Shown here: piece by piece, positions 5,157 to 49,241 of the stretch | Position numbering within the stretch: the first letter of the stretch is position 1 | Layout: each line of letters opens with the position of its first letter | Assembly (NCBI GenBank): GCA_008632985.1 | Contig: QPGO01000333.1 | Coordinates: forward strand, 1-53,335 | Direction: 5' to 3' | Origin: Psammoneis japonica | Taxonomy: Eukaryota | Length of the DNA: 53,335 bases | Notes under the pieces: generated by a model | What the model saw: only the letters and a program-made list of their open reading frames with translations | Databases searched by the model: none | What the model was told of the DNA's origin: nothing | Program-made: the position numbers and the translations under genes

Positions 5157-5293
5157 AATCTTGTGGCCTCCCACAGGTCGCATGCCAAAGTCAGACGGGC
5201 CATTGAAAACACACTGTTTGATCAATGACATGAACTTGCTAAACATGAATTAAATCTGAGCCAACAATGGAAAGAAACCAATCATTTGGAACT

Positions 5294-11784: not shown

Positions 11785-14642
11785 ACGGGTATGACCTATG
11801 ACGTCATCATAAGAGCCTGCGTGACGTGGGTATGATCATACCTATGATACTGTAGTGTTTGGACAGAGTCTGACTCTCGCACTTGCCCGTGCAATAAAGG
11901 TGTTCCACGAAAAGTTAGTTCTATTTTGAAATACCAGATACCATGAACAATACATACCTATTACATTCTCGCAAGACATCGGTTTAAAGAGTATGAGACC
12001 GATAATGCTCATATCTTGTGTATTTTGTGGCTCTAGCGGGGGTCAAAGTCTAGCTAATTCTTCCAAAAAATTCGAGTCGAGTGGGTCATGCGGGATTCAA
12101 GACACGTGACTCACCGTACGTGAAGGGCAAATTGACCCTTTCTCGACACCGAGATTAGATGATAACATCAACACAAGACCTATTTCATGGCTATATTCTA
12201 TTCTCTAATCCATGGCTGACCTCGTGACAACTATATTTGACCTCTTTTATGCTATAGACAGGCCAAGTGATCCACAAAAACTCATTGCAAGCAACGCACT
12301 TGTGTTTTCACATTTGACACTTGTGTCTTTGTGATCAATCTAGAGTGGATGCAAGCCAGAGAGAAGCTCTGTTAACTAACATTTATCATCCTATAGAATA
12401 ACATCGTCAGAACAATTTTGTCAACGTTGTTTGACTCTTTTTTTCTTTGCCGCACGCCAACTTCATTCTGCGTTTTCACTCCCATCCGCCCGACTCTCTC
12501 CCACTCAAGAATGCTTGGCTGAATGCACTGCAGTTCCTTCATCAAAGTCTCACAAATGTTCGTCTGTTCAATGCTGTTGATCAAATGGGACAGATGATGT
12601 GACGACGACGTTGGATTCGTTCATGTGCTCATGCCAGGAAAGACAACAAGAGTTGGCTGCGGCGGCAAGAAAGTTGAGTGAGACAACAAGTGGTGAGACT
12701 TGGACACATTGATGACACCATTTTGATTTTAAATTTACTTGCATTTTTTTTAACTCGGACTTTAACACATCGGGTTCCGAAAATCCGGCAAATGGCGAGT
12801 TGATGCGTCGTCTGCATGCAACATGGCGTCACGAACGAGTGCAACGGCATGCTTCAATGTCACTCGCCAAAATGAATGTCTCCGAATGGACAATTACAAC
12901 CGTGTGTCAATGACGGTCTAACAGAGCTTCTGTTGCAATGGTCCAAAAAACAACGAATGTTTAGACACCTCATCTGCTGCATCAATGTCATCGTCGGCTC
13001 CGGCGGGTTTTTGACAATTTCTCCATCCGTGTTGTCACACAGTGGTTCAAAGCGGCATCGGCTTCGTAGAAACAATTTTTTTGCACCAGCGTAGAACTGT
13101 GCGCATGTGTCTGGCACACAAAAATCATGCCACATCAACCATTTTCTCCAATCTTCGGCAATGGCGGCGTTCGTCGGTTCGCAGCCATTGCGCTGCTGAA
13201 ACCATGTCAATTGTGATCAAACCTGTGGCACGTCACTCGTCACCCTCTTCTCAATTCATGTGTTCCTTTGAAGCTGCACATTCTTTAGCCACAATCCAGA
13301 CAATCAACAACATCAACACAAGGCAAAAATCCAAAGCAGATGCGAGTTGCTTGTTGGCATCAACCTCACATTTTTGTCACAAACGCCCAGCTGAACAGCA
13401 TTTTGCTGCTCTTTCACTTGATTTTCCAGGGTTTCATTGTTGACAAATGCCATGCTCCAATTGTCCAAGGTGCGGTTTGCCGAGGCCATGAATGCACAAG
13501 CCGTGTGGAGAAATCTTTGGATTGAACAGATGTTGTGTCGACACCCCGATCCGTTTTTAAACATTGCCAAAGGAGTGCAGCGAGTTTCTGAGTTTCTGTC
13601 CATTCTGTTGGTGACTCGAGTGAGCAAGCTGTGCTCGATGCCACCTTGGTCTCCACTGAAAGGTGCGACATCAAAACATCCGACTCCGCTTGTTTGTGTC
13701 GTAGACTCAGATGTCTTCCACAGACAGCTTTCGTTTGTGGCAACAGATGATTCCACAATGTAAAATAAAGCACAAGAATGCCCCATTGACATCATGCTGG
13801 CTTTGTCTTTTAGAGATGGGAAGGAGATCAATGGCAGCTCAGCAGCAAAGACATTGGATCGCGCTCAGTTTCAGAGCTGAGATCTGGGCTAAACCCATTT
13901 TGCAAAGAGCTGCTCAAGTCATGAGACAGCGCCACAACTTGTGGGCAATTGACTGACACCAGAAGCGTTCAAAAGCAGTGTGGAAAGGATGAGACGATCA
14001 TCGGCCAATCCAGTTTGAGCTTACAAAGGATTGTTTTACGATCAAGTGTTCGCTGTTTGACGTCACATGCTGGAAAATTGTGTGCATTCTGCACAGAAAT
14101 CGGAGCACCAATTTGAAGCTGCTGCTTTGTGGTCAAAATGAGCTTGCCATTTGGAGCACATTTGAGGAGCGGTCACTCAAACAAGCAAAGGGAAGGGCCA
14201 TGGAAGGTGCTCCAAATGCCACAGCAGTTTTGATGTTGGAATGACATCTTGAAACATGCAGCTCTGTGTCATTAAATGGGATTCCGTGAAACAGGCTTTC
14301 TTGCACGCAAGCAAGGAATTTTAAAAATTTTCGAGGTCGATCGAACTCCAGAACATTTGTTGAGATTTTAGTCGCACAAGTCGAAGCTGATGCCACTTGC
14401 ACGCAGAACTGAACCACTGTGGTCACCACCCCTGTGCTGGGGGAGAATGTGGTGATGTCATGGTCACGCGGCAGATTTGCACCTCATTCATTGCACTTTA
14501 ATGTAAATGTCCTCATGCTCATTTGTGCATTTGCACACAAATGCCAACAGCAGCAGGAAAAATCCTGAACCATGTTCTCCCCTGAAACTCTGACCTCCAA
14601 ACTCCGAGGGTGCGGAAACGCACTTTTTTGGAAGACTGCGCA

Positions 14643-28545: not shown

Positions 28546-28913
28546 TGCACTATGCTCGAAGAACGAGTGTAAACGAAAGTAGAATAGTGTACGAAAAAGT
28601 GGAAATTATAAGATTGAATTTTGCTCTGTGATTTTTGGTTTCTCCGAACGAGTTCTCAATGGCCTAAAGCTTCTGTACTGCTTCTACAGACAAAAGGCCT
28701 TTCGGAGAATATATTCGTGACAACAGATTGTCCGGATACGATTGCCATTGACACGTAAGATGTCAACATCGTCAATCGATCGTATTTGCAATTCTCGACA
28801 TCCGATCAACTCTGTGTGATCGTTCTGTCCTTTGTACGCATCCACGACTGTGGTACGATTGACATATAAATAATATATAATCATAAATATGTATATAACA
28901 GTCGCATACTGCA
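28546..28913 (-). repeat. Gypsy 3' LTR
   Basis: About 4 differences from 32904-33271 by eye. Confidence 0.95.
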
Positions 28914-28939
28914 TTCGCCTCCCTAATTGCACATTAGAG

Positions 28940-31900
28940 TCATTTGTTAAGTGGATTATTCGACGGATATTGACAGTGTCAATAATGTCTCCACGTTCAC
29001 TGTATTGTGCCATTAGTAATGACTGTTGTCGTTTTGTATAGGCCATGTGGGGCCGTTCCAATTTCCGAATGTCTTATGAGAGTGACATCGTTTGTTTCTC
29101 ACTTTATATATATGTATATATAGTATTACGTCGAGTATTCTCGTTGACGTTCTTTGTTGATATGAACACAAGGACTAATTGTCCTGGAGTAAGTGTTTTT
29201 CCTGACATCGATTGTACATAGCATCGTGCCCAGTGCTTAATGTACGCTCTTAATTATGGCGTTCACTTACTTACTTGTGGATTTCATGTAGTTTGGCGGG
29301 CTTACTTTACACGCCACATTGCTCTGCTGCACTGCCACGTTTCATAAGTAACAATGAACGATGGTCAAAGATGTTATGACCATTTCGTCTTGACAATCAA
29401 TCCTGTGATGGTCATGAATTCCATCATGGATTTTTTTTTTTTTGCACTTCAACCATCTATCAGTTGGATTTTAATCGTCACTTGGACATTTCTTTCTGAC
29501 ATGCCGGTGTTATTTTGTCATTCCGAAGGCACTGGTTTCGTGCACTAAGTGGACAAATGTCCATTTTTCTTTTCTTTTTCTTTTTCTAGATCTTTGGCAC
29601 ATCTCGTGTGTCGACATGATGTGCATTTTAATGTCTTGCCTCGCACATTGTACAGTGCAACCGCACGGGTGTTGTGAGATTGTCTTTTGCCAGTGTGAAG
29701 TGGACACGCACAATGCACACCAATCTGTCACTGTTTTTTCCTAAATCGTCCTTTAAAAAGGCGATTTTATCCTTGCGACACGAGCATTTTTGATCTCGCT
29801 CGCCTCCACGAAAAGTGTTCGTATGACATGTCGCGTCCGACAATTTGGAGGGAATGTCTTTATCCCGTTTTAACGGCAGGACATTGTTGCAGGATTCAAT
29901 TTTCTGCAGCAAGTCGGCTGATCGCGTCTGTCGCGACGATGTTCGCCTTGCCCTCGTTGTGTTCTAATTCGGGACTGAAGTTGTCAACGCATGACTTTGT
30001 CCGTTGTGTCTTGTGATCAGCACATGTGCAAATCTGTTGGCCAAACAGCATGTTTCGGAATTTTGTGGGTGTTTTCACTGTGGACAGAAGTTCTTTTTTC
30101 CGTTGTAACGTACAATGTTGAAATCCATGCATGACAACAATGTGGTTTTTGATTTGATGCGCTCCACATTTTCGGAGACTTTTCGTTCCGTACTTGCACT
30201 TTTGCCGTTTGACCTTCATTGAGGTGAATTTGGCTAGCACTGCACAGGAGATCGTTGAGACTGCATGTCTCGATGACAGCAACGTGTGACAACGAGATGT
30301 CGCAGTGTTCTTTGCGTTTTTCTCGTGTTGCGATTGCTTGAATCGCCTCCATTTTCTTTGCAATCGATTGCATGGAAGTCTTGATAGTTTATTTCAAGTT
30401 AAATGGTGAAGGATTTTTGTTGTTGACCTTCCAAGCGACTGTTCTAGTCGTTTGAATGCCGTGTTGAGCTGTCACTTGCACAGGTGATATTTTGAAGTTA
30501 CTTTTGTCAGGCACAAACGATCACATGTGGTCGTTCTGACAACTTCAAACCTGTCATGAGTTCACTCAAGTGTTGTAAAAAAATGTCTGGGGCTCCACAG
30601 ATTCTCATTGGAAGTCCACAGTGCTCATTTTCTCCCCACGGCATGATTTTCGTGTGAGCACGACGTGTGCTTTTTTTGTTTGACATGGTGGCATTCCATG
30701 TTTGAATCAAATAGATTGCACACATGAAACGTTCTTGCTTCAACAGCATTTCCTGAACATTGGGTAAAGGATGCACCACCTGCATGAACCTCATGCTGAG
30801 CTTCTGAGTGTCGGATGCGGTCGAATTCGACCTGTTTTCTTTAGACAATGAGTCTCAGAGCGACTCATTCAGAGCAATTTCATTCTTGAGACTTCAATCT
30901 TTCATAACAGGTCAAACTCCTTTTGATTGGACGCCTCCAAAGACCATGACAGGAGAAGGTTCTCACGCGTCGTGGAATCGCGTCAGATTTTCCACGATGA
31001 GATCCACTGATGCTTCCCACACATTCGTCTGAGGAACTTTTCAAAACGATTTCAACCTCTTAAGAAGAAGATTGAGTTGGTTGTGTTCATTTGGGTTAGA
31101 TGCATCGCCGCAGTTGTCACTTGATTAGGACTGATGGCGTGATGATGTGAGTCGAGGACCATTGGTTCCGTTACCAACTCTATTCACGGCGTCAAATTTT
31201 TCAATGTGATCGGTTTTCAGCTTGAAAACATCGGCATCGAAGAGTGCACGAACATTCTTCATAAGGTGATTGCTTCTTCCCATTAGATTTCTTCATTTGC
31301 GCAGTCCAATGTGACTTGCAGGACTGGACATTAAGTCGCGTCCCATGATCACATCATTCGAACCTGAAGAAAATTTGGTGTTTTCAACATGTGCTGTTTG
31401 AATGTCAGCATGCCTTAAATTTTCGCATAGTGAGAACTGAATTCGGTGTTTACCATCAGTCGTAAAGAGCTCACCCTTGGTTTCCCAAGTTTTTGGTGGC
31501 GGATTCTTGTGTTCTCAACTTTCGCACGAATTTGCGCAAAATTATGGTGACGATGTTCCGTTATCGATAGGAACACGTAGATGCTTTTTTTCTCTCCTTT
31601 CCCAAGGAAGTGTTCATATGAATGATGACTCCTGGACTAGCATGAATTATTTCTGCCTTTTTTCTAGGCTTCCTAATGTCCAGTAAAGCATGTAATTCGT
31701 GAATGGACCAAAATTGTTCTTCGGATTCACTCTGGATCATCCGATCAAATTGGCAATTTTCTTCACTGAGGGTATCAGAATCCAATTCTTTGCCCTCATG
31801 CTCTTTTTCTTTGTTCGAGGAACTCGCTTTGAGTGTTTTTTGAACCGCCTGATCAATCATGACGTTCAACTCTTTTTTTGCGAGCGGCATTTTCGTTATC

Positions 31901-32860
31901 GCGACGCGACCGCGTGCGATTGCCATTTGAACGGCGCATTTTTGGGTCTCTTTCAGAGTCACCCTTGCACTCTTTTGCTAGTTCATTTTTAGAATAGCTT
32001 CAATCCGTGATGTAGGTATTCTTTTTTCAAAGATAAGACCTTGCATTCACTTTGGATTGTTCTGGTACCATATAGGAGACCATTTTTGGAACCAAATTTG
32101 GAACCTTTTTTATTTTGGAACCAACTGCGCTATCAGAGCCTGAGTTGATATGTTTTTTCGTCACGGACGTCATGAACGACCTTTAGATGACTCAAAACTT
32201 AATCAGCTCATCAAGGATGAGTTGCAATAGTTGATTGTTTTGGACAGTAGACTGATGCTGCCATCCTTGCGGTGCGAGTGATAGCTAATGGCTCACGGCT
32301 CGGTTTCCCGCTAGATTCAACATAGAATCGATTGAAGGGTCGTATAGACGCTCTTCATTGACCTCTTGGGTCTAACAGAGGCTTCCTTGCTGTTAAGCAG
32401 CTCTGGTTTCTTCAGATCGTCTTGAAAATAATAATTCTGATTCTGAAGTGCAATTCTTGGAAAGACATGAGATAAGAGACTCTTGAGGTACTTTCCAACG
32501 GTTCCATCTTGCTTTTGGACTCGAGGCTCGTCGATTCGGTCTCTAAAAACTCTCCAATAGTCTCTCCTTGCAAAGTAAATGTATTTCTCGGATCTGATCG
32601 ACTCGGGACTTGCATTCTCTGCAACCATGAATTGGTGTAGATTTTTTGACAATGCGGTGTACTTGTAGAGTCCTTGATCCTTGGATGCTTGGAATAGACC
32701 GTATTAGAACGAATCTTGTCATTTGCTAGACGAAAAACAGCGTTCCATCTTGAGGTGCTGCTCGGATTGAGCTCCTTCCGCTCGGAAATCAATTCTAGCA
32801 GAACTGATGCGATTCGTCCCTGTTTATAGAAGAATTTACAAAGGCACATTAGTTAAAATT
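28940..32860 (-). pseudogene. Gypsy gag-pol remnants, heavily frameshifted and deleted
   Basis: FPRIALQNQ..LKKP (gag), LRVPIDNG (PR), HPLPNVQEMLLK..PWGENEHCGLPM..APDIF (RT), ELLSTV..FRNMLFGQQI..DHK..GKANIVATDAISRL (RH), PGQLV..DTVNIRRI (IN tail). Confidence 0.85.
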
Positions 32861-32903
32861 TTCATTTTCCGTGCTTTTTACCTTCTGTGGTGTGTATACA
32901 CAA

Positions 32904-33271
32904 TGCACTATGCTCGAAGAACGAGTGTAAACGAAAGTAGAGTGGTGTACGAAAAAGTGGAAATTATAAGATTAAATTTTGCTCTGTGATTTTTGGTTTC
33001 TCCGAACGAGTTCTCAATGGCCTAAAGCTTCTGTACTGCTTCTACAGACAAAAGGCCTTTCGGAGAATATATTCGTGACAACAGATTGTCCGGATACGAT
33101 TGCCATTGACACGTAAGATGTCAACATCGTCAATCGATCGTATTTGCAATTCTCGACATCCGATCAACTCTGTGTGATCGTTCTGTCCTTTGTACGCATC
33201 CACGACTGTGGTACGATTGACATATAAATAATATATAATCATAAATATGTATATAACAGTCGCATGCTGCA
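32904..33271 (-). repeat. Gypsy 5' LTR
   Basis: Direct repeat of 28546-28913. Confidence 0.95.
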
Positions 33272-33877
33272 CGTGTTGTCTGCTTCTTTTTCTCTTTCTT
33301 CATTTGCCCGTCCCATTTTTCTCTCCCTTCTTCCTCTTGGCGCCACCTGTTTTTGCTGTCTCCAGCGTCTTTCCATCCGAATCCTTCTTTTTCATTGATC
33401 CCGTCACCGTTGCCTTCATCGTGTGTCACTTTGTTTTGGATCCATGTTTCTGACTTCTCTCTGTGCTGTCTCCATTTCCAAATGTTTCTTTGTGATTGTT
33501 CGCATGCGTCACTTGAAGGCACCCACGTTTTCTTCATGCACCTTAATGCATGTGTAGAAATCCATGTTGTTTTCCAGTGCATGCACCCTTTCTCCTGATG
33601 CATGTTTGCACAATGTTTTCTTCCATCAATTCTACACTCTGCATTGCCCTTTCCCGGCACAATCTCACGCAGGATTTCCCTGGGAGAAGTCACATGCGCG
33701 TCTGACAGGTTTTTGTGTTTAAAACTCCAAATCACACCAGGCGCGCATGCAACTTCTCCCGCGCACCACTCTGGTGTAATTCTGTGGAAACCAGAATTTT
33801 GTGACTGACGCACGACCAATCTGGTGAATGCAATGGCGGACCCACGACCACAACAATCAGAGCACCAGAAGAAAACC

Positions 33878-34964
33878 ATGTCAGATGAACTCCTTTCATC
33901 TGCTGATGAGGATTTCCGTCGCCGGATGATGGAGCCAGTTGATGGTTTTGTTCACGCTGATGCTGCTCATTGTTCGGAGGAACAGATGGCAAAGGATGCA
34001 AAGGCTGCTGTGTCAAGACAGGCAGAAGCAATGGCAGAAGCCCGTTGTGCCATTGTGGCTGCAACGACCGCACTTGAGATTGCTTTGTTAAATCCAGCAA
34101 CAACCACTGGCAAATTTAAGCACATCTGTGTGCAGTGCACCAAGCCATTGATCAAGACACACTGTTCAGACATCGACTGCATTGTTGCAGTGGAAAATTG
34201 CAGTGAAGCGGAAATGAGTTTTCAACGCTTTCTTGACGGCAACGCATTTGATGCAAAAGAACTGGGGCTCCCAATCTCCATTGTGGGACATCAAAAATCA
34301 GAGTTGAGGCTGCACATGCTGCACAGCTGTGGCTCGACGTTGCTTCTGAGAAGCCTCAGGGCCAATTCTGACACAGATGCCACAAGAGCAGCAGAGAGGG
34401 AGCAATCTGCGATTGACAGCATCAACAAATCCATCCACTGCCGTGCCGTGCCACTCCTTCGAAGGCATGTTGCTCCACAAGGCCCTTGACAATTTGAGAA
34501 GGAAAGACATTGCCTTGCAGCGACAGTGGCAAGCTTTGTATGATCTGAGGCCAGGCACAGATCAAATGCATGGAGGGATGTGGACCGCGATTCGGGCTGT
34601 GGACGAAGAAGCCGTGGCAAGAGAAAGGGTCCTGCAGCTGGCATTGCAAATCGAGGCACAATTGGTGGCTGTCAACCAGCCTGACCACAGCGCCGACTTT
34701 CAGCAGGCGATTGTGGCTGCCAGGGAACATTTCATGGTGCAGGATGACCAAATGGACCGTGCAAGTGGACACTGCATAGAATCCATGAGGAAGCAATTGC
34801 TCCAAAACTGCACACATCTGATGCGTCAAGAGTTTCCTGTCGTGTCGGTGGTTGGGAAAGCCTTCCGATCAGGAAGAAGCTCATCTTGGAGTTTCAGAAG
34901 AAGACATCAGAACGAAAGTGACAGAAGGTGCTCGTGCCGCGCTGCTTCACATGCACCACAATGA
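33878..34964 (+). pseudogene. Decayed accessory ORF of the Plavaka element (helical protein, unknown function)
   Basis: Two overlapping protein-like frames (33824..34489, 34377..34964) joined by a frameshift, convergent with the transposase. Confidence 0.4.
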
Positions 34965-35247
34965 CTTTGCCAATTCTGAAAGGATCAAACTCATCATGTT
35001 TGCAAAAAAGAGTTGGGAAATCACTGTGAGTGAATGACAGATTGACACACGCACCCCATTTTAGAAACAAATCTGACCAACACTTCCTTCTGTCCTGTGC
35101 AGCCCAAACAAATGGGGCCTTTTCTTGCGCTTCTGCTGCTCCTGGACATTCTTCACAAACCAAAACATTGTCCCCAATTGCTTTGACAGGGACAACACGT
35201 GACTTGGGTGAGTGCTGAGTCTTCTCAGGCGTTGAAAGCCATTTGTT

Positions 35248-38200
35248 TCATTTGTGATCAAGCTGCCAGGGACCAACCAAGTCTGCATGCTGATGCCGTT
35301 GCCTCACAGTTCTCTGGTCAGCTTGACAAGCAGTTGGATGGACCACTGCAAAAATCAATCCTGTGTCTTCCTGTTCGAAGAAACACAGCAAACAGTGGTT
35401 AAACTGTTGATCGCCCTTTCGTGCGCCAAAGGTCACACAGGCAAAGTCATGCCATGGTCCTTCACTTTTGCAACTGGGGTGTGCACGGTGCGCATCCCTC
35501 CCGTTTGCATTGTAAAACTCTGTCTTGCAAGTCAGGTGTGCACTTTCACTGTCTTCACCAACACAATCCTCCCACTTTTCGGACATGAAGCTCAGCAACA
35601 CAGGATGAACTTGGCAACGAGCATGCAAGCTGCTCCACTCAAACGTCACAGCGCCGATCCCTTGGTTGCAGGTGAGAGTGAATGCACTTCCTCCCAGCAT
35701 GTGATTGTCCGTCCTGACTCTTGATGATTCCTTTTTCCCAGTTGGCAAAATCCAACTGTCAGCTGAAATTGCGGCATTGAGCCTCATTTGGTCCTCGATG
35801 CGCGACACGACTTGCTTCAGAAAACTGTCAAGGTCACGTTGTTGTGCGGCAGATGACGGCAGCTTGAAAAAGTTGTTCAAGAGACATTCCCCCAACCCTG
35901 CGTCAAAGTTCATCGCATGTCGGTGACAACAAAGAAACACTGGGAGATGGAGTGTTTCATGAAGCTTTTGAAGCTTCTGCCCGCATCCTTCTGTTCGCGG
36001 GACGAATTGCACCATCCGGTCAATGAGGAGACGGATTTTCTTGTTCATTTTCTGAACAGATGAACTGGGAGTTGCGCTTGTGATGGGTGGATCGCCCAGC
36101 CTGCACCATGCATGGAAGACAAGAAGGTCCTCAAGCAATTGAATGAATTGCTGGACGCTGCAGTTGAGTCTTTTTCCCTTGTGTTTTTTCTTTTTTTGGT
36201 TGTCGTCACCATCCTCAGCCTCACCCTCCTCTTTCTCATCCTCATTTTCATCCCAGTCACCCTCTTCGGACTCCTCCGACCTTTCATCATCAGAGTCCAA
36301 GCACTCACTGGGTTGGCAGCAACTCTCAAAGTTTGCTTTGGGCATCTTGCGATTCTCTGGAACAATGGGTTCATCTGCGTCCTCGTCAAGGAAGCATGAC
36401 TCACATGCGTTTCGTCCCTCACTGGTCAACAGGAGAAGGTAGAAAACAAAAGCCATTCCAGCCCAGTGGTGAGAGTTGAGGAAGGCAAGCAACGTTGCTC
36501 CTCCTTTGAAGTTTGTTCGCAAAAAGGATGCTTTGCAAGTTGACCGGTGATTGCTGAAAATCCTTTCCACCATGCTGTCCACCTCACTTGCGACCACAGG
36601 TGTCATGCTGTCTGCAAATGAATTGATTGCCCTTTTCAAGGTGCCGTTTTCAAAGAGATGCATCATGTCGCTTGCTGTCGCAAGGGCAATGCCGAATGGT
36701 TGTGTGCCAAAGTCTGCCTCAAAAAGACAGTTGGTGGGTGCGTTGTGTTGCTTGAGGTGATGCAAGATGCCCAACCAGTGCTTCCTTTCTTGGTCTGATC
36801 TGTTGTCGTCATTGGCCTTAGTTTGCACTTGGTGGAGATCTAGTCCTTGGACAAACTTGCATTCAATCCATGGGTCGTCCAGTTTGTTGAAGCCAGTGAG
36901 GCGGCAAAAACGACAGCAACATTGACGACAGTTGTGACCTCTGCATCGTCCGACGAGACAGTCGCCGCTTTTTGCGTCTCCTGTGATCAGAACGATCAGT
37001 GGGATTGCGCGGAGGTGTCGCATCTCATCCCCTCGTTGCACGCATGTTTTCATGCCTCCTTTTCTCATGACTTCCAGAAGTGGCTCCAAAATGACACGTG
37101 AGCAAGTGTGGCAGTCTCTTGACGAGCGTCCCTTCTCCGCCTTGCGATTGTTTGAGATGTTCTTTGCTGCAGATGACGACATCTTTTCCAAATCCAGGAG
37201 ACAACCAATTGGTTGCCAGACACTCTTGTCTGACCATTTGTTGAAGGCAACATGCGCAGAGGTCATGATCACTGGTTCTCCGCAATGTGATCCCGTCCCT
37301 TGTGTCCTGCCAGTCTTGTCAAGGTGAATGACATTGCACTCGAGAAATTGTTTCTCCGGGTCAGTTGTCCGTTCTTCGCAACTGTGCCTGCACCACTCAC
37401 CCGCCAAAAGGCACTTGTCATCCGGTCCCTTCGCTTTGCACTTCCCAAAAGGATTGTCTGGATTGGCCACATTCTCTCTGCTGCACCACAGGTGAGGATC
37501 GAGTGAAAACTGTTCCCAAACCTTTGTGAAATCCCATCTTGGCACTGACACTCGTTTTGGCAAACCGGTTTTGAAATTTTTGGTTTCTAGAGTGACAGGA
37601 ATAGACTCGCTGGGTGGAAGAGGGAAATGATCAGTTAAGGTGCGCATCAACTCTTTTCTCCTTGGCAGAACTGCACCAAGCTCAATGTTGCTGTCACCAG
37701 TGTGCCTCTCAATGAAATCAACAATGCAGTTGCACAATTCCAGGGGAGCACCACGTGTGTCCATGATCTTCTTGCACAGCTCTGCGCAAGCTCCGTCAAG
37801 ATTTGTCAAAGAGGGAGTGGAAGCCAAGGCCTCTTCTGCAGGAGCATCACACCTGGTCCCCAAACGTTGATCCCCATTGTCACGCCCAACACTGCAGCAA
37901 AAGATTGACCACCGCCAACATCCAAATCGTTCATTGCTGAAAGTTCAACTCCATGCATGCTGTGGTTTGATGAAATGGAGGACATGTCATCCATTCCGTG
38001 CGGCGCGTCATCCTGGGAGGGGAACAAGGGGCTGCTGCTCAGATCACTCATTGAAGATCTTGGGAATCTGCTGCAAGTGTGTCGCCTCGGATGGGATTCG
38101 TCATCATCAGAGGACGAAGAGGAAGAGCTGCTGCTTTCTTCAGGTGGCCCCTCCATTGTGGCAGAAATGTCGCTTTGATCTGGGATTGGATCTTGGGTTT

Positions 38201-38312
38201 GCAACTCTTGGGCAACTGAGTGACACGTCGGTGAGCATCTCCAATGGCAGGCCATTCTCAAAAAACTTTGGCCACAACCGGGACAGAGAAGAGGGTTTCC
38301 ATCCATTGTCAA
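35248..38312 (-). pseudogene. Plavaka-family (CMC/EnSpm-related) transposase with N-terminal zinc finger; frameshift near 37860
   Basis: CPGCGQSF..H..SPTC; IHLDKT, WQPIGC, ITGDAKSGDCLVGR..CRFC, DMMHLFENG, KLQKLHETLH, NFDAGLGE, HRAHP..GPWHDF; only 2 Tyr in 871 aa. Confidence 0.85.
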
Positions 38313-38759
38313 TCAGTCAATGTTGACAGGGCCTTCATCAAGACTCACACTCGTCGTCCTTGTCTTGTGGATGAGAAGAGAAAAGAAGAACAACACGCAA
38401 AAAATGGCGGGAAATTGGCAAACATTGCATTGTGTTCCAGATTTGGATGATTCTTGTGGGTGTGACGTGTCTGCATTTTGATTTTTTATCTGGCATTCAC
38501 AATGAACATTGTTCTTTTTTATTTGCTGTCAAATTGCAGGACATTGTCTCCAATGAAACTCAATGACAGCCATGTCAAAAAGCAAGTTGGACTGTTCGTT
38601 GTTGTGTGCAAACACATTTTCAAATTTCAATGTTGCTGACAATGATTTGTGCAATGTCACAGAAAAAAACAGAGTGCCTGGCTGTCTCAACACGACCCAA
38701 ATGACGGTTGCACTGTCGAACAGCACCACTCCTCTCATTGTTGCCGTGAAAAGATCAAG

Positions 38760-40032
38760 ATGTCATCTCCAGCACCACCGGCAAAGAAGAGAAAGAAAAA
38801 TGAGACCATCAAGCCAATGAGCCCAAGACTTCAGGCAGTGTTGAAGAGAACAGGTGCACAGGCAGCACATGGTGCATTTAAATCAGAAGCAGAGAAGGTG
38901 GTTGGAAATGATCTGTTTCCACAGGTGAAGTTTCTCAGTCCATCAGAATTGGCAAGCAATGGGAGCGTCTCAATGTTTGTCAAGAAACAGATTGCTGGTG
39001 GCAACATGGACACTTCAAATTGGTCAGGAACTTGGGAGGAATGGACAAAAAAGGCGGCAAAAAGGCAAATTAACAATCGCAGAAACACGGTGTGTTCGGC
39101 TGTTGGGGTGGAGGCAATGGCCCGTAAGTCAAGTGACCAATGTGTGTGATTCAAGAGTTGCGCGTGTCTTGCAAGAAGATTGCGGTGATGCTTCTCTACA
39201 CGGCGTTGTCACTGAGGAAGAGGGNNNNNNNNNNNNNNNNNNNNNNNNNNNNNNNNNNNNNNNNNNNNNNNNNNNNNNNNNNNNNNNNNNNNNNNNNNNN
39301 NNNNNNNNNNNNNNNNNNNNNNNNNNNNNNNNNNNNNNNNNNNNNNNNNNNNNNNNNNNNNNNNNNNNNNNNNNNNNNNNNNNNNNNNNNNNNNNNNNNN
39401 NNNNNNNNNNNNNNNNNNNNNNNNNNNNNNNNNNNNNNNNNNNNNNNNNNNNNNNNNNNNNNNNNNNNNNNNNNNNNNNNNNNNNNNNNNNNNNNNNNNN
39501 NNNNNNNNNNNNNNNNNNNNNNNNNNNNNNNNNNNNNNNNNNNNNNNNNNNNNNNNNNNNNNNNNNNNNNNNNNNNNNNNNNNNNNNNNNNNNNNNNNNN
39601 NNNNNNNNNNNNNNNNNNNNNNNNNNNNNNNNNNNNNNNNNNNNNNNNNNNNNNNNNNNNNNNNNNNNNNNNNNNNNNNNNAAGAGGTGACGAAAGACAG
39701 AGACTCCAAGGAGGGCAAGGAGTTTGAAAAGTGGCATGCGGAGATCAAGAAAAGCGAGCACGAGAAGTCCGGAGAAGCAAAAAAGAAGAAGAAGAAAGCA
39801 CTGACCGGTGACACGGAGAAAAAAGGTGAAGGCAATGAACAGCCTGATGGTGGAGAGCAGCAGGGACAATGACAGTGACGACAATGAGTGGGAGGAAGGC
39901 GCAAAAGGCAAAACGGATGACGGAGGAGACAAGCCCAATGGAGACGAGTCCGATGATGATCGTCAGCTCAGTTTAAGAGAGTTGCAGCAAGAAAATGTGT
40001 GCACAGTTGACACAGCACTCGGTCATTGCACT
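38760..40032 (+). pseudogene. Divergent accessory gene of the Plavaka element, spanning the assembly gap
   Basis: NLS-like PAKKRKK, LFPQVKFL...W...INNRRN block, probable intron donor GTAAGT at 39124, acidic/basic tail after the gap. Confidence 0.5.
39225..39681. other. Assembly gap (N run)
   Basis: 457 consecutive N. Confidence 1.
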
Positions 40033-40734
40033 GCAGATGCAACAAGGGATTGACTCAACCGATGAAATGCTTTTCTTGTTTAAAATGATGTTTACGAAAA
40101 TTAACAAACCAAGGATTGTGTGGCAATGCAATCATGCATTGGCACATGGCAACAAGGTGGAGGCAGAAACAGCGATGTGGACACAGTGAAAAACAGCATG
40201 CACAATTCTCAACAAGTCATTGCAACATTGGTGCACCAAACTTGCAACCAGAGGTTGGCCTTTCATCACATGACAATGATTTTTTGCAATGTTTTGACAA
40301 ATTGTCATCATGCAAATCTGCACATTTTTAACATTTCGTGCACTCTGATGCCAGCGGGGCCAAACTGAGCAAACAAGAAAGCTCTCTTTTGTTGCCATGA
40401 AGAGCATGCTGAAGCATGGAAGATTTGTGAAAATCAGCAGAGTTGAAGACAATGGGTGCTGCCATTGTTGGACACATCCCCGTGTTTCGCTGTGTTTTTG
40501 TCGGAGGTCAAGATTGGAGGTGGGAGGAGCACTGGAAAGCAGCAAGATGTGGCTCTGTAAATTTCTACGTGGCTCTGGTGCAAAATTGCAATGAATGGAA
40601 ATTTTCCTCTTCAGGGCAATCCAAGGCACTTCATGCACAAAAAGGGACAAGAGTGTTCAGCAATTTGCAGCATGCAATCACAAATGTTGCAACTCCCTTT
40701 GACATCTTTTTCGGAATCCAAAAAATCTTTTTTG

Positions 40735-40940
40735 GGGGGGCATCTTTGGAAGCAAGACTGTCGAAGAAAGTTGCACAGAATTTGCACTGAAACAGTCTGT
40801 CAATCAGTGCAATCAGGGCATTTGGGGACACTGGACAGATCCCATGTGTTTGCTTTTGCATGCAAATTGCACTGGGAAGACCCCCAAATGCACTGGCAAT
40901 CAGACCGCCTTCGACAATCTCACTTCCAAAGACGCCTCCC
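40735..40940. mobile_element. MITE-like element related internally to 14643-14853
   Basis: 32-bp arms GGGGGGCATCTTTGGAAGCAAGACTGTCGAAG / reverse complement GGGAGGCGTCTTTGGAAGTGAGATTGTCGAAG; interior aligns with inverted 14680-14820. Confidence 0.7.
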
Positions 40941-43900
40941 ATTCTGGGCCTTGGCTTGCAACCACCACAACAGAAGATGATGTTGCATCTGTCTTCAGCT
41001 TGCTGCTTCTCCTGGACTCTGTTTTGTTCCATCTCTCCATGTGAAGTCCATTTTCATGCCGCTTGCTTTGGAGTTGTCATCATGCAGGCCTTGTTTGCAA
41101 TTGACTGCATCAACAAGCCATCACAGGCTCCGCATTCTCTGTGCTGTTTTCCCTGCACCAGAAATGTTTGTTGCTTGTGATGGATGCACAGGATTTCACA
41201 ATTGTGATTTGATGGGAGGTGAGCTCAAGAAAAAACCAGGGACTTGTGGCGGAGCAGCTTTGCAACTCATTGGCAACATGTTGTGGGGCCGGATGCTTGC
41301 ACCATTCATGCAATCTTACAAACTGGAAGAGCTCAGACAAGTGTGTCAAGTGTGTGGAACAGCACATTGCACAATGTTTGAAAGGAAGCTGTTGGATTCT
41401 CACACATGGCACTTGTTAATCTTGCAAGCCATTTGGATGGACTCTTGGACCCAATTGTGGATTGCAAGGAGACAAAGCTGCGTTTTTGTGCTGATCAGCT
41501 TGTTTTTCTACAATCGTGGTGAAAGAAAGCGGAGAAACTTCAGGCAATGTCTGTGCTCAGGAAGCAGGAAGGCAGCTGCAAAGATGCAGTCAAGTCTGCA
41601 AAGAAACATGCTGAGAAGCAGCCAAAAACAAAAGACACACAAGGAGCCCCAATCAAGATGTTCAATTTTCATGAATTTGCCAAACCACGGAGGAGGAAAT
41701 GCAGCAAATCCCATCGCTCACCAGCAGACAGCATGCTTTGACTGTGCGCTTTGTGATTTTAATCTTTTGTTTCAAAACGGTGTTGGCGTTGATGCAAATG
41801 GATCGTCTGCTGCCTGTCCAAGGCTGAGGACAGCCCAAGGAATCTTTGTCAACTTCAAAAATGCCAAGAAAACTTCCCATCAAAGATGCCTTTTGGTGTT
41901 GCTCAAATTGGATCTTTCTTCCTCGTGCATTCAAGCAAATGGAAGTGGAGCATTTCATCCCACTCATTGGCAAGTTTTGGGAGGGACTTGCTGTTTTGGC
42001 GGTCGAGACAAGTGTGTTTGTTGCGCAGTTGCTTGGCACTGTCAACAAGGCTGTTGAGGAAGAAAGTCACCCCACCATGTGGCCTGCTCTGATTGCAAAT
42101 CCGCGCCAAGATGCTGGGCTTGCCAGACACCAAATGGAAAGTGCAGTGCCATGGCATGAACCAACTGCTGAAATTGCAAAACACATGGCGACATGGATCT
42201 TTAGCAAAGTCTGAACATTTCTGCAGGTGGGTGCATCTGTGTCCTCACTCTCTCAACTGTTGCACATCAATCTCACAACATCCGCCATTTCCTTTTTCAA
42301 GACACAAGTCCAATCCATTTGCATCTTGTGTTCTTGGAAGAGTTGATTTTGTTGGTGCAAGGTTGTTTGGGACAGCACCGCTGCAGAGCATGACAGGGTG
42401 CCTGCCAAAGGCACAGTCAGTGATGGCACAGATCACAACCCACAACCAATCATGTGGCACATTGCAGCTGCATGGCAGGCAAGAAGGGCCTCAGAGATGG
42501 CAATCCAATGAAAGGTGATGCTGTGGCATCAAGAAGACATTCTGACATTTTGGCGGCAGTCCAAAGGACACATCGTCATGGCCCTTCTGAATGAAGTCAC
42601 TCTTGTCAAGGCAACCATTGACAAAGTTTGCCAATCCAAGGATTCTTTGTTGGTGTCAACATGCTTGCTGGCATGCTGCCTCAGCTTGCAGTCAGCAAAT
42701 GAGCTCACAATGCCCCATTTCTTCCATGCAGATGAGCAGCATTGCTGCACTCTCTCTCAAAAAGATCACAAAAGGATGAGGTGGTTCAAAGTGATGGATG
42801 TTGAAGAGCAAGCCTGTTTTCCAGGACAGAGAGCAGACATTTGCACCCAAGACTGTGCAAGCCATCATTTTTTGGATCGACAACAAACAATGTTGTCTTC
42901 CAGAGAATCCATTTTCCAACATTGCTTGTGCATCTCAGCCCTCATTTCAACTGTGAAGGATCACTGAAGAGCCTTTCTGAGAGCCTCAAAACAATCTTGC
43001 ACAATTGTTGTCAAGCTCGTCACAACATCAACGACACACCAAATGTCAAATCAAACGCAGCTCTTTCGTGATGAAGTCACTGCCGCAGCTGCCACAAACC
43101 AGTGGCCCCAGCAAGGGCAACACTTTCTTTTTGATGCCAAGAACAAATGGATCACTCAAACAGCAACACGCACTTGGTCTTTGAATGAATGGTTGCTCAT
43201 TTGGACACGTCCAGTGACCACTTGCTGGCTGACCATGCTGCTCGGTTTTTTCCGATGGATCCCATGGCTCAAGGCTGGTCCAATGCAGGTGGCCTTGTCC
43301 AAGACAAGTTGACTCCTCAACTTGACAACATTGAATGTGTTGGTCAAGGGGATTCAGACAACATGCCAACAAGCACAATGAGTTGTGGAGTGCCAAACAA
43401 GAGCAAACCATGTGTTGGGTGAAGCCAAAGGAGAAGTTCAGATTTGGTCTGATGGGGGGGGCATCCAATGTGCAAATGGTGCAGACACTTTCTGCCAAAA
43501 TGATTTTCTTCTTCACTTCTCTCACATGCTGAACCAGAACGGCAAGCCATCCTTGGTGATTGCGATGTTGCGGTTGGCAAAAACAAGCACATCATGCAAA
43601 ATGACAAGCTGTGGTCCAAATTGAGCAAGGGCCAGCTAAATGTGCTCATCTGGAGCAGATTTTGCACACCAAAATGCACAAAAAATGGCTGCATGCAATC
43701 TGCACAGATGCAGCACTGATGGATGATGTCACAGCCTCCCTCCAACCCTGTGCGCACTGTCTGCGGCTGCCGTGAGCTTCCACAGCCATGGCTGAAATCC
43801 TGCGCAACCTTGTTGAGATCTGCGTGTTTGAGCAACTGAACAGCAAGCACTGTTGCTTGCTTGAGCAGGTGACAGTTGCAAATGCATGTGGTGGTGAGTT

Positions 43901-44466
43901 TTGTGGCTGTCACTTCCTGTCTCTAGAGGGCCAATTGCTTCTGTTGCAGTTGCAAGCTCATCACGAGTGCACTGCAACGTTTTGGTGTGTGACGCCACAC
44001 AGAATCCTGGCATGTTTCCATGCAGCAGTGCATTTTTGTGCATTTGGCACAAAATGCAACAGGAATCATTCAAAAATGTCACATTGGTCACATTCAACAT
44101 TTCACAAAAGAAAAAAAACAAAATCGTGTGGAAATGCACACAATGTCATGCAAGAGAGTGATTGGAGCCAACAACTTTTTGGGAGCTGAATTGAAATGCC
44201 ATGTGATTGATGGTGTTGGCCTTCACCATGTGAGTCAAAATGCTGTCAATCAGATGGCATTTCAATCGATTTTCCAAGAAGTTGTTGACATTCACACATG
44301 GAATGGATGGACAGACTGACAACAATTGTTTTTGGCGGGTGCTGGTGTGCTCCTGCACAATTTCTGCATGATGACTCTCAGGACCCCAATGATTGCTGTT
44401 GGACCCAAAACCTCAAAAATGTGCACTGCACATTTGGCCGGTCCTCAAAATTGAGAAAGAATTTCC

Positions 44467-44735
44467 GAGAGATTTTGTGTGTTGTGACCGTTGCTAAATT
44501 TCTCAGTCACTGTCATTTTTGTGCATCTTTGCAGAATTGATGCCATGATTTTGCATGCAAAAGATTTGTGGGAACTCAGCACTTTCCAAAATGTTGCCAG
44601 CTTCTGCATGCACTTCATGGCATCTGTAGAAAATGCATGAAAATGTTGCCAAAGCAACGTCTTCATTGTTGAGGTCCAAGCTCAAAAGAACTGGCAGGTG
44701 GCACAACACATCATGCCACAGCACGGCATTCAGCA
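44467..44735 (+). repeat. Dispersed ~260-bp repeat, hypermutated copy
   Basis: Aligns with 48987-49241; differences are mostly TA or CG -> TG/CA. Confidence 0.85.
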
Positions 44736-44973
44736 CAGGCTTGCACATTGTTCCATTTTTCATTCATTCTCAAAATTTTGGGCTTGAGTGAACAGACACA
44801 AGTTGATGCTTTGTCAGAACAAGTGAATGAGTGAGTGATGATGTCGCCACAGTGTGAGCTCCAAGAGCTCAAATCTGCGGTGCTGCAGGGTGCACCAGTG
44901 TGCTGTGCCAACCAAAACCAATGTGTGGCTCTTTCTGCCAATGGCAGTTGATTGCTGCTGTCACTGATGCTTT

Positions 44974-46700
44974 TTACACCAACTGCTCACAACACCACTT
45001 GCACCGCAATTCAGTTTTGTGTCTCCAATCAGCCATGGTCTCATGCTCTGACAGGTTCATGGCCTCCAGATTCAGTGGAAGCTCTTCCTCTGCATCAAGA
45101 TTTGCCACCTTGAGTTTCTCATCCCAGTGACCACTCACCATTTGTTTGACTGGTTCCCTGTCCCACCAGCGTGGGTTTGCCTTGAGCATCATGACAGCTT
45201 CCAAGAGATGTGGCTCCATGTTCTTCCAATCATCAGCCAGCACTTTAGATGCAAGACTGAAAAGCCTTTCTGCCTCCACAGTCATGGCACAGATCACAGA
45301 AGGATCCATGTGCTTGCTGCCATGCCTTGCTTTCTTCTGAGCTTTTGCATCTTCCGCCACCTTCAAGGGATGGTCCAATGCTGGAGTGCTGCTGGCATCA
45401 TCTTCAGCCTCCATGACAGACAGACATGCATCCAGTCTTTCTTCAAGAGGACTTTGCATGCCTCCTGTTCAGATTCCATCAGAGTGTGCTCCTTGGCTGC
45501 CAGAATCTTGATGACGCATCGCTTGAACTCAGGTGACTTCACCAAGGTGTGGTCAGTTGTCAGCCAGTGGTGAAAATCTTTGCTGTCATTCACTTCTTCA
45601 GCCTGTGTGACAGAATTCATGGGGTGCTTCTGCAAGCAGGTCATCAAAGATGGTTTTTAATGTTGGGAGGTGCATCACAGCCACCACGCTCTTCTCAGAC
45701 TGTTTCTTGGGAGTGCCGTCTGCCTCCTTTTCCAGAATGACGGGGGCACATCATCATCAAAGATCTTAGTTTTTTCCAGTGATTGGTGCACCACGTCAGT
45801 TTGCACACAAGTTCAGTTGCATGCAGAGAGAACACAGAATGGCAGAGTCAGTGACAGGTGACAGCAACCACAATGAATGCAGCACACTCAGAGCAGAACA
45901 CTTGCGCCACTTTTCCTGTCCACCGAGTGAGCTGCACTGTGGAGGCTTGGGCTGAGCCTGACTCCTTTCTCTCTTGACTTGCCCCAGTTGTTCAATGACC
46001 CACTCAACTTCTTTTGTGTTGCACTGCATTCGTCAACAAACTCAGCTGGGCTGGTGTCATGTTCAATCTCTTCTTTGCATGCAAGATTGGCTGGGCGGCA
46101 AAGAGCACCAACGAATGCCATCACAGCGGGTCAAGGCCCCGGGTGGACTTGGGATTGGCTGGTGTCAGTGTTGTCCATGGCAGCAGCAACAAGGTCACCC
46201 AAGGATGCATCAAGACCACACCACTTGCACGTGGCCGCAAGGAACTTGGCCTTCAACTTCGCATTCTGGGCAGCTTCATCCAAGAATGGTGCAAAAGCCA
46301 GCAATGCACTCAATGCCTCCACCTCCTTGGTTTCATCATTTGGCCAAGGCCAGTCATAGAGCCAAGTGAAGAAGTGGCATCCTGCGGCACTCCACCCATC
46401 ACCCGCACCAAATCCCTTGCCAATCTTTTCTTTGACACGCAAAGACGTGACATCTGAAAGCTTCGCCACCCACCAGTTGCAAATGGTGCGACGATCCACA
46501 CCAGCCATCACTGCATTGCAAAGAACCACAGGGTTGCATGTCCCTGCTTGTGCACAGATGGTCTCCAGAGACCATCTGTGCACTGTCGCCTGCACAGATG
46601 GTCTCGAGCTCGCACGGCAAACACAAGCAGGGACACAAACTTTCACGCAAAAATCTTTCCGTTGGTGGCAGAAACACATGATCAGTCAGTCGTGACAACT
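44974..46700 (-). pseudogene. hAT-superfamily transposase remnant
   Basis: GFGAGDGWS, LLAFAPFLDE, MDNTDT, LCRPANLAC, and dimerisation domain KHMDPSVICAMTVEAERLFSLASKVL..MEPHLLEAVMMLKAN..WWD. Confidence 0.8.
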
Positions 46701-46883
46701 TCGCATCAGCGATCTTGCGACTTCAACTTCTTGCGTCATCGCAACAACCACGATTCTCCATCCCACCGGTGCTGCATGGCACATCGTGACGATGATGCAT
46801 GGTGCATCGTGACAATGATTCCTCCAACAAAAGTGCTCCCTTGTTGCATTTGTCATTGCTGTTTTACAACAAGTCATCGGAGG

Positions 46884-48060
46884 ATGATTTCTGTTCTTTT
46901 TGCTTGGTGGCCAGCAGTGTTCTCATTGCTCTGTTCGAATCCAACCCCAGCAATCGCATCATCGTGTTTTGTTGCAAATCGATTGCTTGGAAATCTGCAC
47001 AAGAGACTGATGCTGTGAGGACGTGCAACAACGCGACTCCAAGCAGTGTCCTGCAGAAACGTCTTTGTGATTTCCTTTGATGGCAGCGTTGCTGACACAT
47101 CCACATGGAGAACACAACAGGGCGCAGTGGCCGCGTTGGACACGTGGCCAACGTTGCGAGAAATGACTGGCAACAATGACAACGACCAGCAATGGCTTTA
47201 CAACAAGCTTGGAATCTTGTCTCACGTGCTTGCAAGTTGACCAGGATCTAGCTTGGGATGCAAGCACGCCTTGTTGGCTCGACTGTTTTTGGAAGAGCAA
47301 GAATTAGATGAGGGAGGATCCACGGGACGAACGGGAAAGTTTGCTTCCCAAGTTCCATCCATCGACTGCGACAAAACAACAGACACAACGACGCACCAAC
47401 AGGCAAGGAAGTGGACCTCTTGCCATGGGAGAAGTCGTGGCCAATTGGCATGATGGGGGATTTCTCCATGAGTCGTTACTTGCAAAGCACAATGTCGAAG
47501 GAGGCAGCCCTCTGCCGCATCTTCAAGTTGCTGTTGAACGACAAGAATCGAACGAGGTGAGTGTGGTGTGGTGCTTTGGAGTTGGGGTATCATTGTGAAG
47601 CCAGTTTTTGTCTCATGAAATGCGATTGGTTTGCACAATTGTTCTTGCCAACTGAATTCATGCAAAAGGATTTCGAGCTGCAGACGGTTGAGCCACTCAT
47701 TGCGGATTCACTGCGGGGTTGCACAGGTGACGTTTTTGTCACAGGGTGCACCGGCAGCCATCAGAATCCATTGCGGTTGTTCCACATTGCACCACCAGCA
47801 CCAGTGAGCTGCAAACAGTCAAGCGATTTGCAGAGCAACTGGACCAAGCCAGCAGCGAAAATGAAGAAACAAACCCATTTGTCGTCAACTCGTCTTGGCA
47901 GTCTCTTCAAAAATTGAAGCTGCTGTTTGGAGACAACATGCCCCGCAAACGGTGAAACGAAATCCCGACGAGCTTTGCAAAAATGCAAGAGCTTGATCAA
48001 GTCAACCTCTCCCTCAACCTGCCACATTGGGCCTGCACTGCAAATCAAATTGCACACAAC
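46884..48060 (+). pseudogene. Host-like gene (conserved diatom hypothetical protein, HAD-like start), pseudogenised and TpA-depleted
   Basis: VFVISFDGSVADT, WLYNKL, LLARLFLEEQELDEG..GKFA, GPLAMGEVVANW; donor GTGAGT near 47557; stops and frameshifts; family recognition is from memory only. Confidence 0.5.
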
Positions 48061-48986
48061 CAAGCAGAAATGGAACCATGGACAAACGTTTTGCAAATGG
48101 GTGCTTCTGTCCACTTGCTTTTGTAAAAGATTGCATCTTGGCGAGTGGCTGACCGCTTGGCATGAGTGCAGTGAATCATGCACTGTGAAGAGTGTTGAAG
48201 CCGGGCCGTTGCACACTGCAAGGATTGCCACAACACAGCTAGAGTTGAGTGCCACAACTGGTTGGCATGGAAAGAATGCGTGGGGCAAACTGGGCCACTG
48301 TGGAAACCAGAGCTGACGTGACTGTCGCATGTGGACACATTTTTGCATCAAGAATCAAACGGAAAGAAATGAGCAGATCAAGCACAAGAGAGACAATCCT
48401 TGAGGTGGCTTTTGAGTGTTTGCCTCAAAGAAAGTGAAGATGTTAAATCCGGACAACAAGTGTGAAATCATGTGGCCGGGAATGGCTTTGAACGCGGATG
48501 TTCTCGACTTTCCTCTTTCAATCCTCTGAAACTGCCGGTGTGTCATTTCTGGGACCAAGTCATGACTCATGCTGCAGGTGAAAACCGAGAGACATCAACG
48601 TTCAATTTGGGGAACGACGAACAAGATCAAGCTGATGAAATCGTCATGATGGAGCAATGAAAGGAATGATGAGATGATGGCTGCCAGGCGATGACGTCAT
48701 TCGTCATCAGCACAGCAAAATCAAAGCCTGGTCGGGACCTGGCAGCGAACAGGACCCTTCCTTTTTTCCACAGAGTGTTGCAGAGACGACAACATGCAAT
48801 TGGACTAGAGAGAGGTTTTCTGTTTTCTAGTTTCCTTTTTGTGGAACACCAAACAAGAGCTGGCTCTCTGTTGTCCGCAAGAAGGGCGAGCCATCCTGGG
48901 CGATCGCGGCAATCGTTGCTTGGCGAACAACAACACATCGTGCGAGACGACGAGTTGTGATCGAAACAGCGCGAAAGAAAAAGTGT

Positions 48987-49241
48987 GAGAGTTTTTGTTT
49001 GTGTCGTGACCGTTGCTAAATTTCTCAATCACTATCATTTTCGTGTATCCGTGTAGAATTCCTACTGTACCATGATTTTGTATGTAAAAGATTCGTGGGA
49101 ACTCGGTACTTTCCAAATTATTACTAATTCCTACGTACGCTTTACGGTAACCGTGGAAAACGCAAAAAAATGTCGCCAAGGTGACGTCTTCGTTGTCGAG
49201 GTCCGAGCTCAAACATCATGCCACAAACACGGCATTCAGCA
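48987..49241 (+). repeat. Dispersed ~260-bp repeat, largely unmutated copy
   Basis: Aligns with 44467-44735 and retains TA and CG. Confidence 0.85.

Follow-up and report, generated by a model that had tools for sequence, protein, structure and literature searches.

Introduction

Fungal repeat-induced point mutation (RIP) changes C to T at CpA and so creates TpA; it is repeat-directed, dinucleotide-specific and saturating, has sharp borders, and depends on RID/DIM-2, homology sensing and the sexual stage. TpA itself is the target in Bigelowiella natans, where integrated DNA of nucleocytoplasmic large DNA viruses (NCLDV) as well as of virophages undergoes TpA>TpG/CpA hypermutation at an about 1000-fold per-generation rate in a subset of lines, and where the preprint's main text proposes ADAT2 (Mettrop et al., bioRxiv 10.64898/2026.01.13.699255). 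The stretch analysed here (the window) comprises all 53,335 nucleotides of contig QPGO01000333.1 from the diatom Psammoneis japonica, and positions 39961-48840 are a domain of transposon relics from which nearly all TA dinucleotides have been erased.

As in Bigelowiella, going by the main text of that preprint, transitions occur solely at TpA (499/499 here), on both strands and in foreign or silent DNA; unlike in Bigelowiella, the host is a diatom, the targets are multi-copy transposons, mutation approaches saturation and a flank rule is measured. Neither a flank rule nor diatoms appear in the preprint's main text, whose supplement lists mutations and may bear on the rule, and literature searches found no report of a diatom TpA mutator or its context. 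The process is a variant of one reported a single time before; its lineage and class of target are new, and its flank rule was not found in print. Like RIP it is a repeat-directed, dinucleotide-specific and saturating series of transitions with sharp borders; unlike in RIP, TpA is lost, C>T at CA is 0.3% (in the Plavaka copies described below) and there are no long same-strand tracts.

The comparisons below show a process that is enzyme-like, TpA-strict, transition-only, both-strand, flank-graded and far faster than CpG decay. The preferred reading, with a probability of about 0.5, is an enzymatic mutator of silent repeat DNA that would deaminate A to inosine on duplex DNA, turning TpA into TpG on either strand, with an ADAR-like protein as the preferred candidate.

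Surviving TA dinucleotides

The domain is defined as follows.

39961-48840: transposon-relic domain with TA erased, 32 TA remaining

TA observed/expected (O/E) per kb is 0.01-0.08 in these relics vs ~0.6 in the gene region past 49 kb, and CA and TG are enriched across the domain. An earlier note, made from the sequence alone, had estimated about 32 surviving TAs, some 26 of them in TTTA, TCTA, TAAA or TAGA (TYTA/TARA) where a quarter would be expected by chance, with 5 of the other 6 in TTA. Exact counting returns the same 32, 26 and 5; the five are ATTAAC, CTTACA, GTTAAT, CTTAGT and GTTACT, and the sole survivor outside TTA and TYTA/TARA is GGTATC. The quarter holds within its baseline, which is 24% for independent bases, 26% from the flanks of CA/TG sites within the domain and 31% (159/520) among TAs of TA-normal window parts. 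Against the 31% expectation, 26/32 has a binomial p of 5e-9.

The motif was derived from those very 32 sites, so held-out tests carry more weight. In the other TA-poor parts of the window, 69 of 102 TAs are in TYTA/TARA (p=2e-14). At other loci, with the two model families and 39961-48840 masked, the share is 73% (277/378) in TA-poor tiles vs 25% (1454/5799) in TA-normal tiles, although common repeats mean that the tiles are not fully independent.

The earlier note had also pointed to surviving tyrosines, mostly in FY or VY dipeptides. This is true of 5 of the 6 Tyr across nine translated transposable-element open reading frames (ORFs), the sixth being NY in the copia ORF, but all five lie outside 39961-48840, the coordinates given in the note. 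These tyrosines repeat the DNA rule, Phe (TTY) followed by TAY giving TYTA by construction, and are not independent evidence.

Survival against ancestral sequences

Four data sets allow survival to be read against an intact or inferred ancestor or against a second copy. Within the domain, the relics with TA-intact counterparts are:

41277-41808: relic with a TA-intact homologue at locus L058 (82%), 25 TA in the homologue vs 4
44453-44729, plus strand: copy, with its TA erased, of repeat 48976-49213 (some 16 TA vs 2)
46637-48384: relic with a TA-intact homologue at L063 (80%), 71 TA in the homologue vs 8
48442-48838: relic with a TA-intact homologue at L065 (78%), 19 TA in the homologue vs 3

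Four parts of the domain with TA-intact homologues elsewhere provide 121 aligned homologue TAs, at which the window has TG 46 times, CA 46 times, TA 12 times and another state 17 times. Survival is 8/19 at motif sites vs 4/102 at other sites (Fisher p=3e-5).

The second set is built on the left end of the domain.

39961-40352: Plavaka-type DNA transposon of high copy number, right end, TA changed to CA or TG independently in each copy

Thirty-four further copies were fetched; L122 (98% to the window), L100 and L107 (>95% to L105) were dropped and 33 were kept, with 244 inferred TA sites and 270 CG sites. TA survival is 4.2% without the motif (196/4654), 28.5% with TYTA only (170/596), 20.7% with TARA only (135/653) and 90% with the motif on both sides (84/93), with a site-level p of 1e-12 for the motif effect. 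The site at 40081, in a TTTAAA context, is retained in 32/33 copies. When sites are chosen without reference to survivors, 15% of motif sites (145/960) vs 3.5% of non-motif sites (158/4480) are kept. By the dinucleotide that follows TA, survival is 34% for AA and 32% for GA, and at most 13% for the other 14 of 16.

The third set is a young family.

7397-8740: one copy of the independent test family, a young non-autonomous derivative (1.34 kb) of element 8728-11793
9616-11649, minus strand: nearly intact 677-aa transposon ORF, parent of the young test family, Pfam GCR1_C

The parent ORF is one that we take to be a Crypton. The family is non-coding, 1.34 kb long and present in 28 copies, some of them unmutated, so that all 69 ancestral TAs are directly visible. 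Among 20 copies (8 related ones were left out), 499 of 1315 TA site-copies are altered, and all 499 have become TG or CA. Other contexts change little: CG 36/1284, CA>CG 5/1747, AA>AG 13/2096 and GA>GG 3/1595. In the middle segment, motif sites keep TA in 62/130 cases vs 66/338 for others (site-level p=0.001). Loads range from 0 to 54 of 69 TAs lost per copy.

Position within the element also matters in this family (window 7397-8740 and loci L136-L159). In heavily mutated solo copies, 13-31 of the 36 middle TAs are gone but only 1-4 of the 13-23 in the last 450 bases; in the inner units of tandem arrays, that same part has lost 9-19 of about 23 TAs. Element edges are protected, a pattern that suggests targeting at the level of domains or chromatin.

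Finally, a second copy of the region, on contig C76, differs from the window by 2.55%, against 0.27% on the gene side, where 152 TAs are shared and 2 are polymorphic. In that copy 8/32 of the window TAs have been converted and 10 TAs lost by the window are retained; 24/32 survivors are TA in both copies. The surviving contexts are therefore slow, not immune. The earlier note had called them resistant, and its flank dependence stands whereas the resistance does not.

These data bear on the view that no context rule exists and that the pattern reflects ancestral composition, new TAs, shared ancestry, selection or GC-biased gene conversion. The TYTA/TARA share among unmutated TAs is somewhat above 25%, TA loss depends strongly on position in the element, and some copies share mutations, all of which would fit such a view. 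The motif effect nevertheless holds against known ancestors and within one segment, survives removal of related copies, and comes with matching coefficients in two unrelated families; most survivors are TA in both the window and C76 copies, and context predicts which strand is changed. The absence of a rule is thus very improbable. On the ancestor and survivor-free tests, an artefact of composition, a bias from identifying sites by their survivors and an effect of position were all rejected, and flank dependence persists when ancestral composition is controlled.

The flank rule

Rates were estimated with a model of competing rates for the two strands and a load for each copy; the young-family fit used 17/28 copies and three segments, with one polymorphic site removed. 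The log-likelihoods treat copies as independent and hence overstate significance. The TYTA/TARA motif slows change to 0.37-fold in both families. Models trained on Plavaka and tested on the young family gained 17.5 log-likelihood units (dLL) for a rule with only a +1 purine (the "TAY" rule), 37.5 (duplex) or 45.6 (by strand) for the motif of the earlier note, and 85.3 for additive effects of positions -2 to +2; extension to ±4 did no better (83.0). The +1-only rule is real, yet it was the weakest of 10 models on held-out data. The note's claim that context reaches to -2/+2 is thereby borne out, and its four tetranucleotides are predictive, although a graded -2..+2 model is about twice as good.

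The joint fit, which carries site-bootstrap intervals, gives these relative rates for the strand going A>G:

-2: A 1.40, C 0.92, G 1.17, T 0.66
-1: A 1.53, C 1.02, G 0.77, T 0.83
+1: A 0.61, C 1.54, G 0.63, T 1.69
+2: A 0.60, C 1.33, G 1.06, T 1.19

Coefficients transfer between Plavaka and the young family, and the hexamer ranking replicates across the two. The slowest hexamers, TTTAAA (slowest of all), TCTAAA and TCTAGA, are precisely the double-motif ones; the fastest are AATATT, AATATC and GATATC, and the gap is about 20-fold. In held-out loci the model ranks hexamer depletion with a rho of -0.77 over 135 hexamers. TYTA, TARA and above all TYTARA remain because TA persists only where both strands are slow.

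Clues to mechanism from the mutation pattern

Flanking bases determine not only whether a TA is lost but on which strand. In Plavaka, TYTA ends as TG 305 times and as CA 121 times, and TARA as CA 361 times and as TG 157 times. Drift and GC-biased conversion cannot make the mutated strand depend on the flanks in this way, and the preference of the earlier note for enzyme or DNA-shape specificity is upheld on this point, either of these two being compatible with the data. Overall the strands are equal (CA 245 : TG 254 in the young family; per-copy TG=CA in Plavaka, chi-square 29.8 on 33 degrees of freedom). Coding-strand bias was rejected, its sign being inconsistent over 8 segments; one 8-site segment gave 70/98 TG.

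The requirement for a 5' T is strict, and the direction is loss of TA, with no gain. In Plavaka, A>G stays under 1% where the preceding base is A, C or G (CA>CG 0.84%), and across both families CA>CG is 0.3-0.8% vs 38-90% change at TA. In the young family TA loss runs ahead of CG loss and hence is not a side effect of CpG decay. CpG loss in Plavaka depends on a separate and weaker context, in which -1 C is slow (0.64), and the CpG and TA loads of the copies are correlated (r=0.44).

Mutagenesis by Pol eta follows a WA motif, in which AA is also mutated, with transversions. Error-prone patch synthesis at repeats by a Pol eta-like polymerase would agree with the preference of that enzyme for A>G at TA. 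The spectrum is a different one: AA>AG is 0.6-0.9%, transversions account for 0/499 changes at TA, and there are no strand-coordinated patches. Such a polymerase is hardly a credible source of the changes.

The ±1 and ±2 positions behave differently. With T at -2, or the complementary A at +2, change is slow on both strands, whereas the ±1 effect is strand-specific: a symmetric (base-pair) ±2 model keeps 252 of 276 log-likelihood units, and a symmetric ±1 model loses 268. Among 11 extra terms the largest held-out gain came from the length of the A-run after TA (+5.3); terms for GC, for the density of CpG nearby and for the number of adjacent TAs gained about 1 unit or less.

Base-flipping modifiers have palindromic specificity and a duplex-symmetric context. 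The strict palindromic dinucleotide and the duplex-symmetric ±2 term seen here would accordingly be expected of a mark-then-mutate or repair-shaped process, in which a miscoding T or A modification is placed at the TpA palindrome, or a context-blind lesion is best repaired in TYTA/TARA, so that the flank rule would be a property of a methylase, an oxidase or a glycosylase. Formally, too, TA>CA on one strand equals A>G on the other. Eukaryotic N6-methyladenine (6mA), made by an MT-A70 enzyme, is targeted to ApT regardless of the 5' base, and the finding that A>G requires a 5' T runs contrary to such an ApT-directed route. Local CpG density adds nothing to the model and TA loss precedes CG loss; profile searches of the genome for Tet_JBP and MT-A70 were blank, but so were their controls. 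This explanation is considered doubtful.

Same-strand coupling is confined to TATA, where TGTG/CACA outcomes reach 0.84 and 0.68 vs 0.50 and 0.47 simulated with context updating (at 2 nt, r=0.38, z=7.3); judged from the sequences, either a double hit or hits in an ordered path could account for it. No same-strand clustering occurs at 3-12 nt, and a weak opposite-strand excess at 4-6 nt is not clear at single distances. Long-range strand coordination and a 10-bp periodicity were rejected: of 39 distances only 2 nt exceeds |z|=3, the other 38 lying within it.

These features can be set against the proposal made for Bigelowiella, that a TadA/ADAT2-type deaminase acts on transiently single-stranded DNA (Mettrop et al.). 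The genome carries one TadA-like gene besides an ordinary ADAT2, and TATA pairs are mutated on the same strand. TadA-derived editors (ABE3.1, ABE8e, ABE8e-YA) change A>G after a 5' pyrimidine; according to the text available for each, they prefer YA (10.1101/2024.11.19.623682) with a YAY>YAR hierarchy for ABE8e-YA (PMC12528748), which the present preference for +1 pyrimidine over purine fits. Of the 16 dinucleotides that can follow TA, CG goes with the largest same-strand share (0.76), recalling the need of native TadA for UACG as given in part of PMC12296453. In the comparison with TadA editors called for by the earlier note, those editors also accept CA, which here is barely changed (5/1747 in the young family), and work within a single-stranded window. 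A bubble would give same-strand clustering beyond TATA, and complementary -2/+2 effects have no reason under a single-strand reader. The family is not expanded either (9 PF00383 and 5 PF14437 matches). Single-strand deamination is therefore possible but unlikely.

The candidate enzyme

The preferred reading is that of a mutator aimed at silent repeat DNA, which would convert TpA to TpG on either strand, at a single site or a single TATA pair per event. The chemistry would be deamination of A to inosine, fixed at replication. The enzyme would engage DNA that is double-stranded or part of a hybrid, and would flip the base, given that the ±2 pair has a slowing effect on both strands and that A-runs protect further. 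The candidate favoured for this role is the protist ADAR-like deaminase of this genome, proposed by family likeness. The portion of PMC5389660 available reports that ADARs deaminate deoxyadenosine in DNA/RNA hybrids with 5' T as the best neighbour; the same neighbour is best here, and a duplex substrate with base flipping would match the symmetric ±2 term. Unlike the present process, human ADAR prefers a 3' G, tolerates AA and CA, and is not known to act on DNA/DNA, whereas here +1 G is slow and TA is strict. The ADAR and TadA families each match part of the flank rule and fail part of it.

Two genes of the ADAR/ADAT1 family are present in the genome. One is ADAT1 by its named relatives. [quoted passage not shown] By sequence, and with no tree, this gene is provisionally equated with the protist ADAR-like clade that PMC11946409, in its available part, lists for three diatoms. 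A relative (P0478/P0493, in a cluster of 8) has a C-terminal MGMT DNA-binding domain (PF01035, E=6e-23), found in 1/30 proteins scanned, and this fusion hints at a DNA substrate for the ADAR-like family. The ESM Atlas gave no match to the ADAR-like exon, and twenty distant ADAR-like clusters included two named chrysophytes and zero chlorarachniophytes. In a 491-aa ORF near 88.5 kb on C79 (L164), the C-terminal half of a deaminase is fused to a second domain, presumably a 2OG-Fe(II) oxygenase, which it resembles by motif.

Several points weigh against this interpretation. The A or its partner T as target, and a lesion step or repair as the source of context, are equally compatible with the sequence. 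The slow +1 G (0.63) stands against human ADAR1d, for which TAG is the top site, edited at 94% (PMC5389660). The ±2 symmetry is approximate, the free model being 23 units better than the symmetric one, and the likelihoods themselves come from copies that are partly related, which inflates their significance. Survival correlates with duplex stability in the young family (rho -0.35 to -0.40). The ADAR-like gene is diatom-wide; for paradinids a role in mitochondrial RNA editing has been proposed, and for Bigelowiella an ADAR-like entry appears only in an inconclusive initial tree, with no ADAT listed, in the available text of PMC11946409, so that this entry may be ADAT1. Duplex stability or GC as the cause of survival was rejected as not general, the relation being moderate in the young family and near zero in Plavaka.

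Other features of the window

The TA-poor DNA of the window is transposon debris: Pfam RVT_2, DDE_Tnp_4 and GCR1_C score above cut-off, and Plavaka and hAT below. The host genes match proteins of the diatoms Skeletonema, Thalassiosira, Seminavis, Cylindrotheca and Pseudo-nitzschia. Further features are:

33500-39224, minus strand: Plavaka-type element body, ORF 35248-37944, Pfam Plavaka E=3e-4 (under cut-off)
44974-45468, minus strand: hAT dimerisation-domain remnant, Pfam E=4.5e-4 (under cut-off), zero Tyr remaining
48839-49213: repeat at the sharp domain edge, TAs retained from about 49 kb onward

From this edge repeat to 53335 the window is a TA-normal gene region. The repeat lies at a TA-poor/TA-normal border in about 19/30 loci (L001-L030, judged by eye), in a survey whose TA-intact query biases the sample toward intact copies. 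An N gap at 39225-39681 probably fuses two different Plavaka copies; the C76 copy is about 97-98% identical to the window right of the gap and 90-91% left of it, with no match further upstream. Given this probable junction, the C76 Plavaka copy was set aside as a basis for rate dating.

CG O/E is 0.18-0.33 in 40001-46000 vs 0.58-0.74 in 46001-49000, TA being equally erased in both; on this sequence evidence there would be two clocks, of which CG O/E marks 40001-46000 as the older block. The element at 28546-33203 has direct terminal repeats that are 99% identical and an interior partly depleted of TA, as expected if it is a young target in mid-process. A tandem array of about six units of 183-185 bp lies within TA-poor DNA at 4105-5204. 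A metagenome scan for other species yielded just 2 loci, both TA-normal.

Significance

TpA hypermutation has been the subject of one preprint, and a strand-resolved hexamer ranking narrows the search for the DNA-editing enzyme. The both-strand ±2 effect speaks against a simple single-strand TadA picture. The ranking provides a target for in vitro assays, for example with a NNNTANNN library, of ADAT2/3, the ADAR-like protein or a T-modifying enzyme. It can also be compared with the roughly 230 de novo mutations given for Bigelowiella in the preprint and its supplement, which would address whether one enzyme acts in two distant lineages. Within the genome, slow sites may serve as a clock for old repeats once the fast sites are exhausted. 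A more specific and rather improbable proposal is that diatoms defend themselves against transposons with a natural adenine deaminase acting on duplex genomic DNA, namely the dsRBD-less protist ADAR-like protein, which would need TpA, prefer RATATY and stall at TYTARA. If this is true, the hexamer ranking would be the substrate logo of an adenine editor of DNA that occurs in nature and has no need of a single-stranded bubble.

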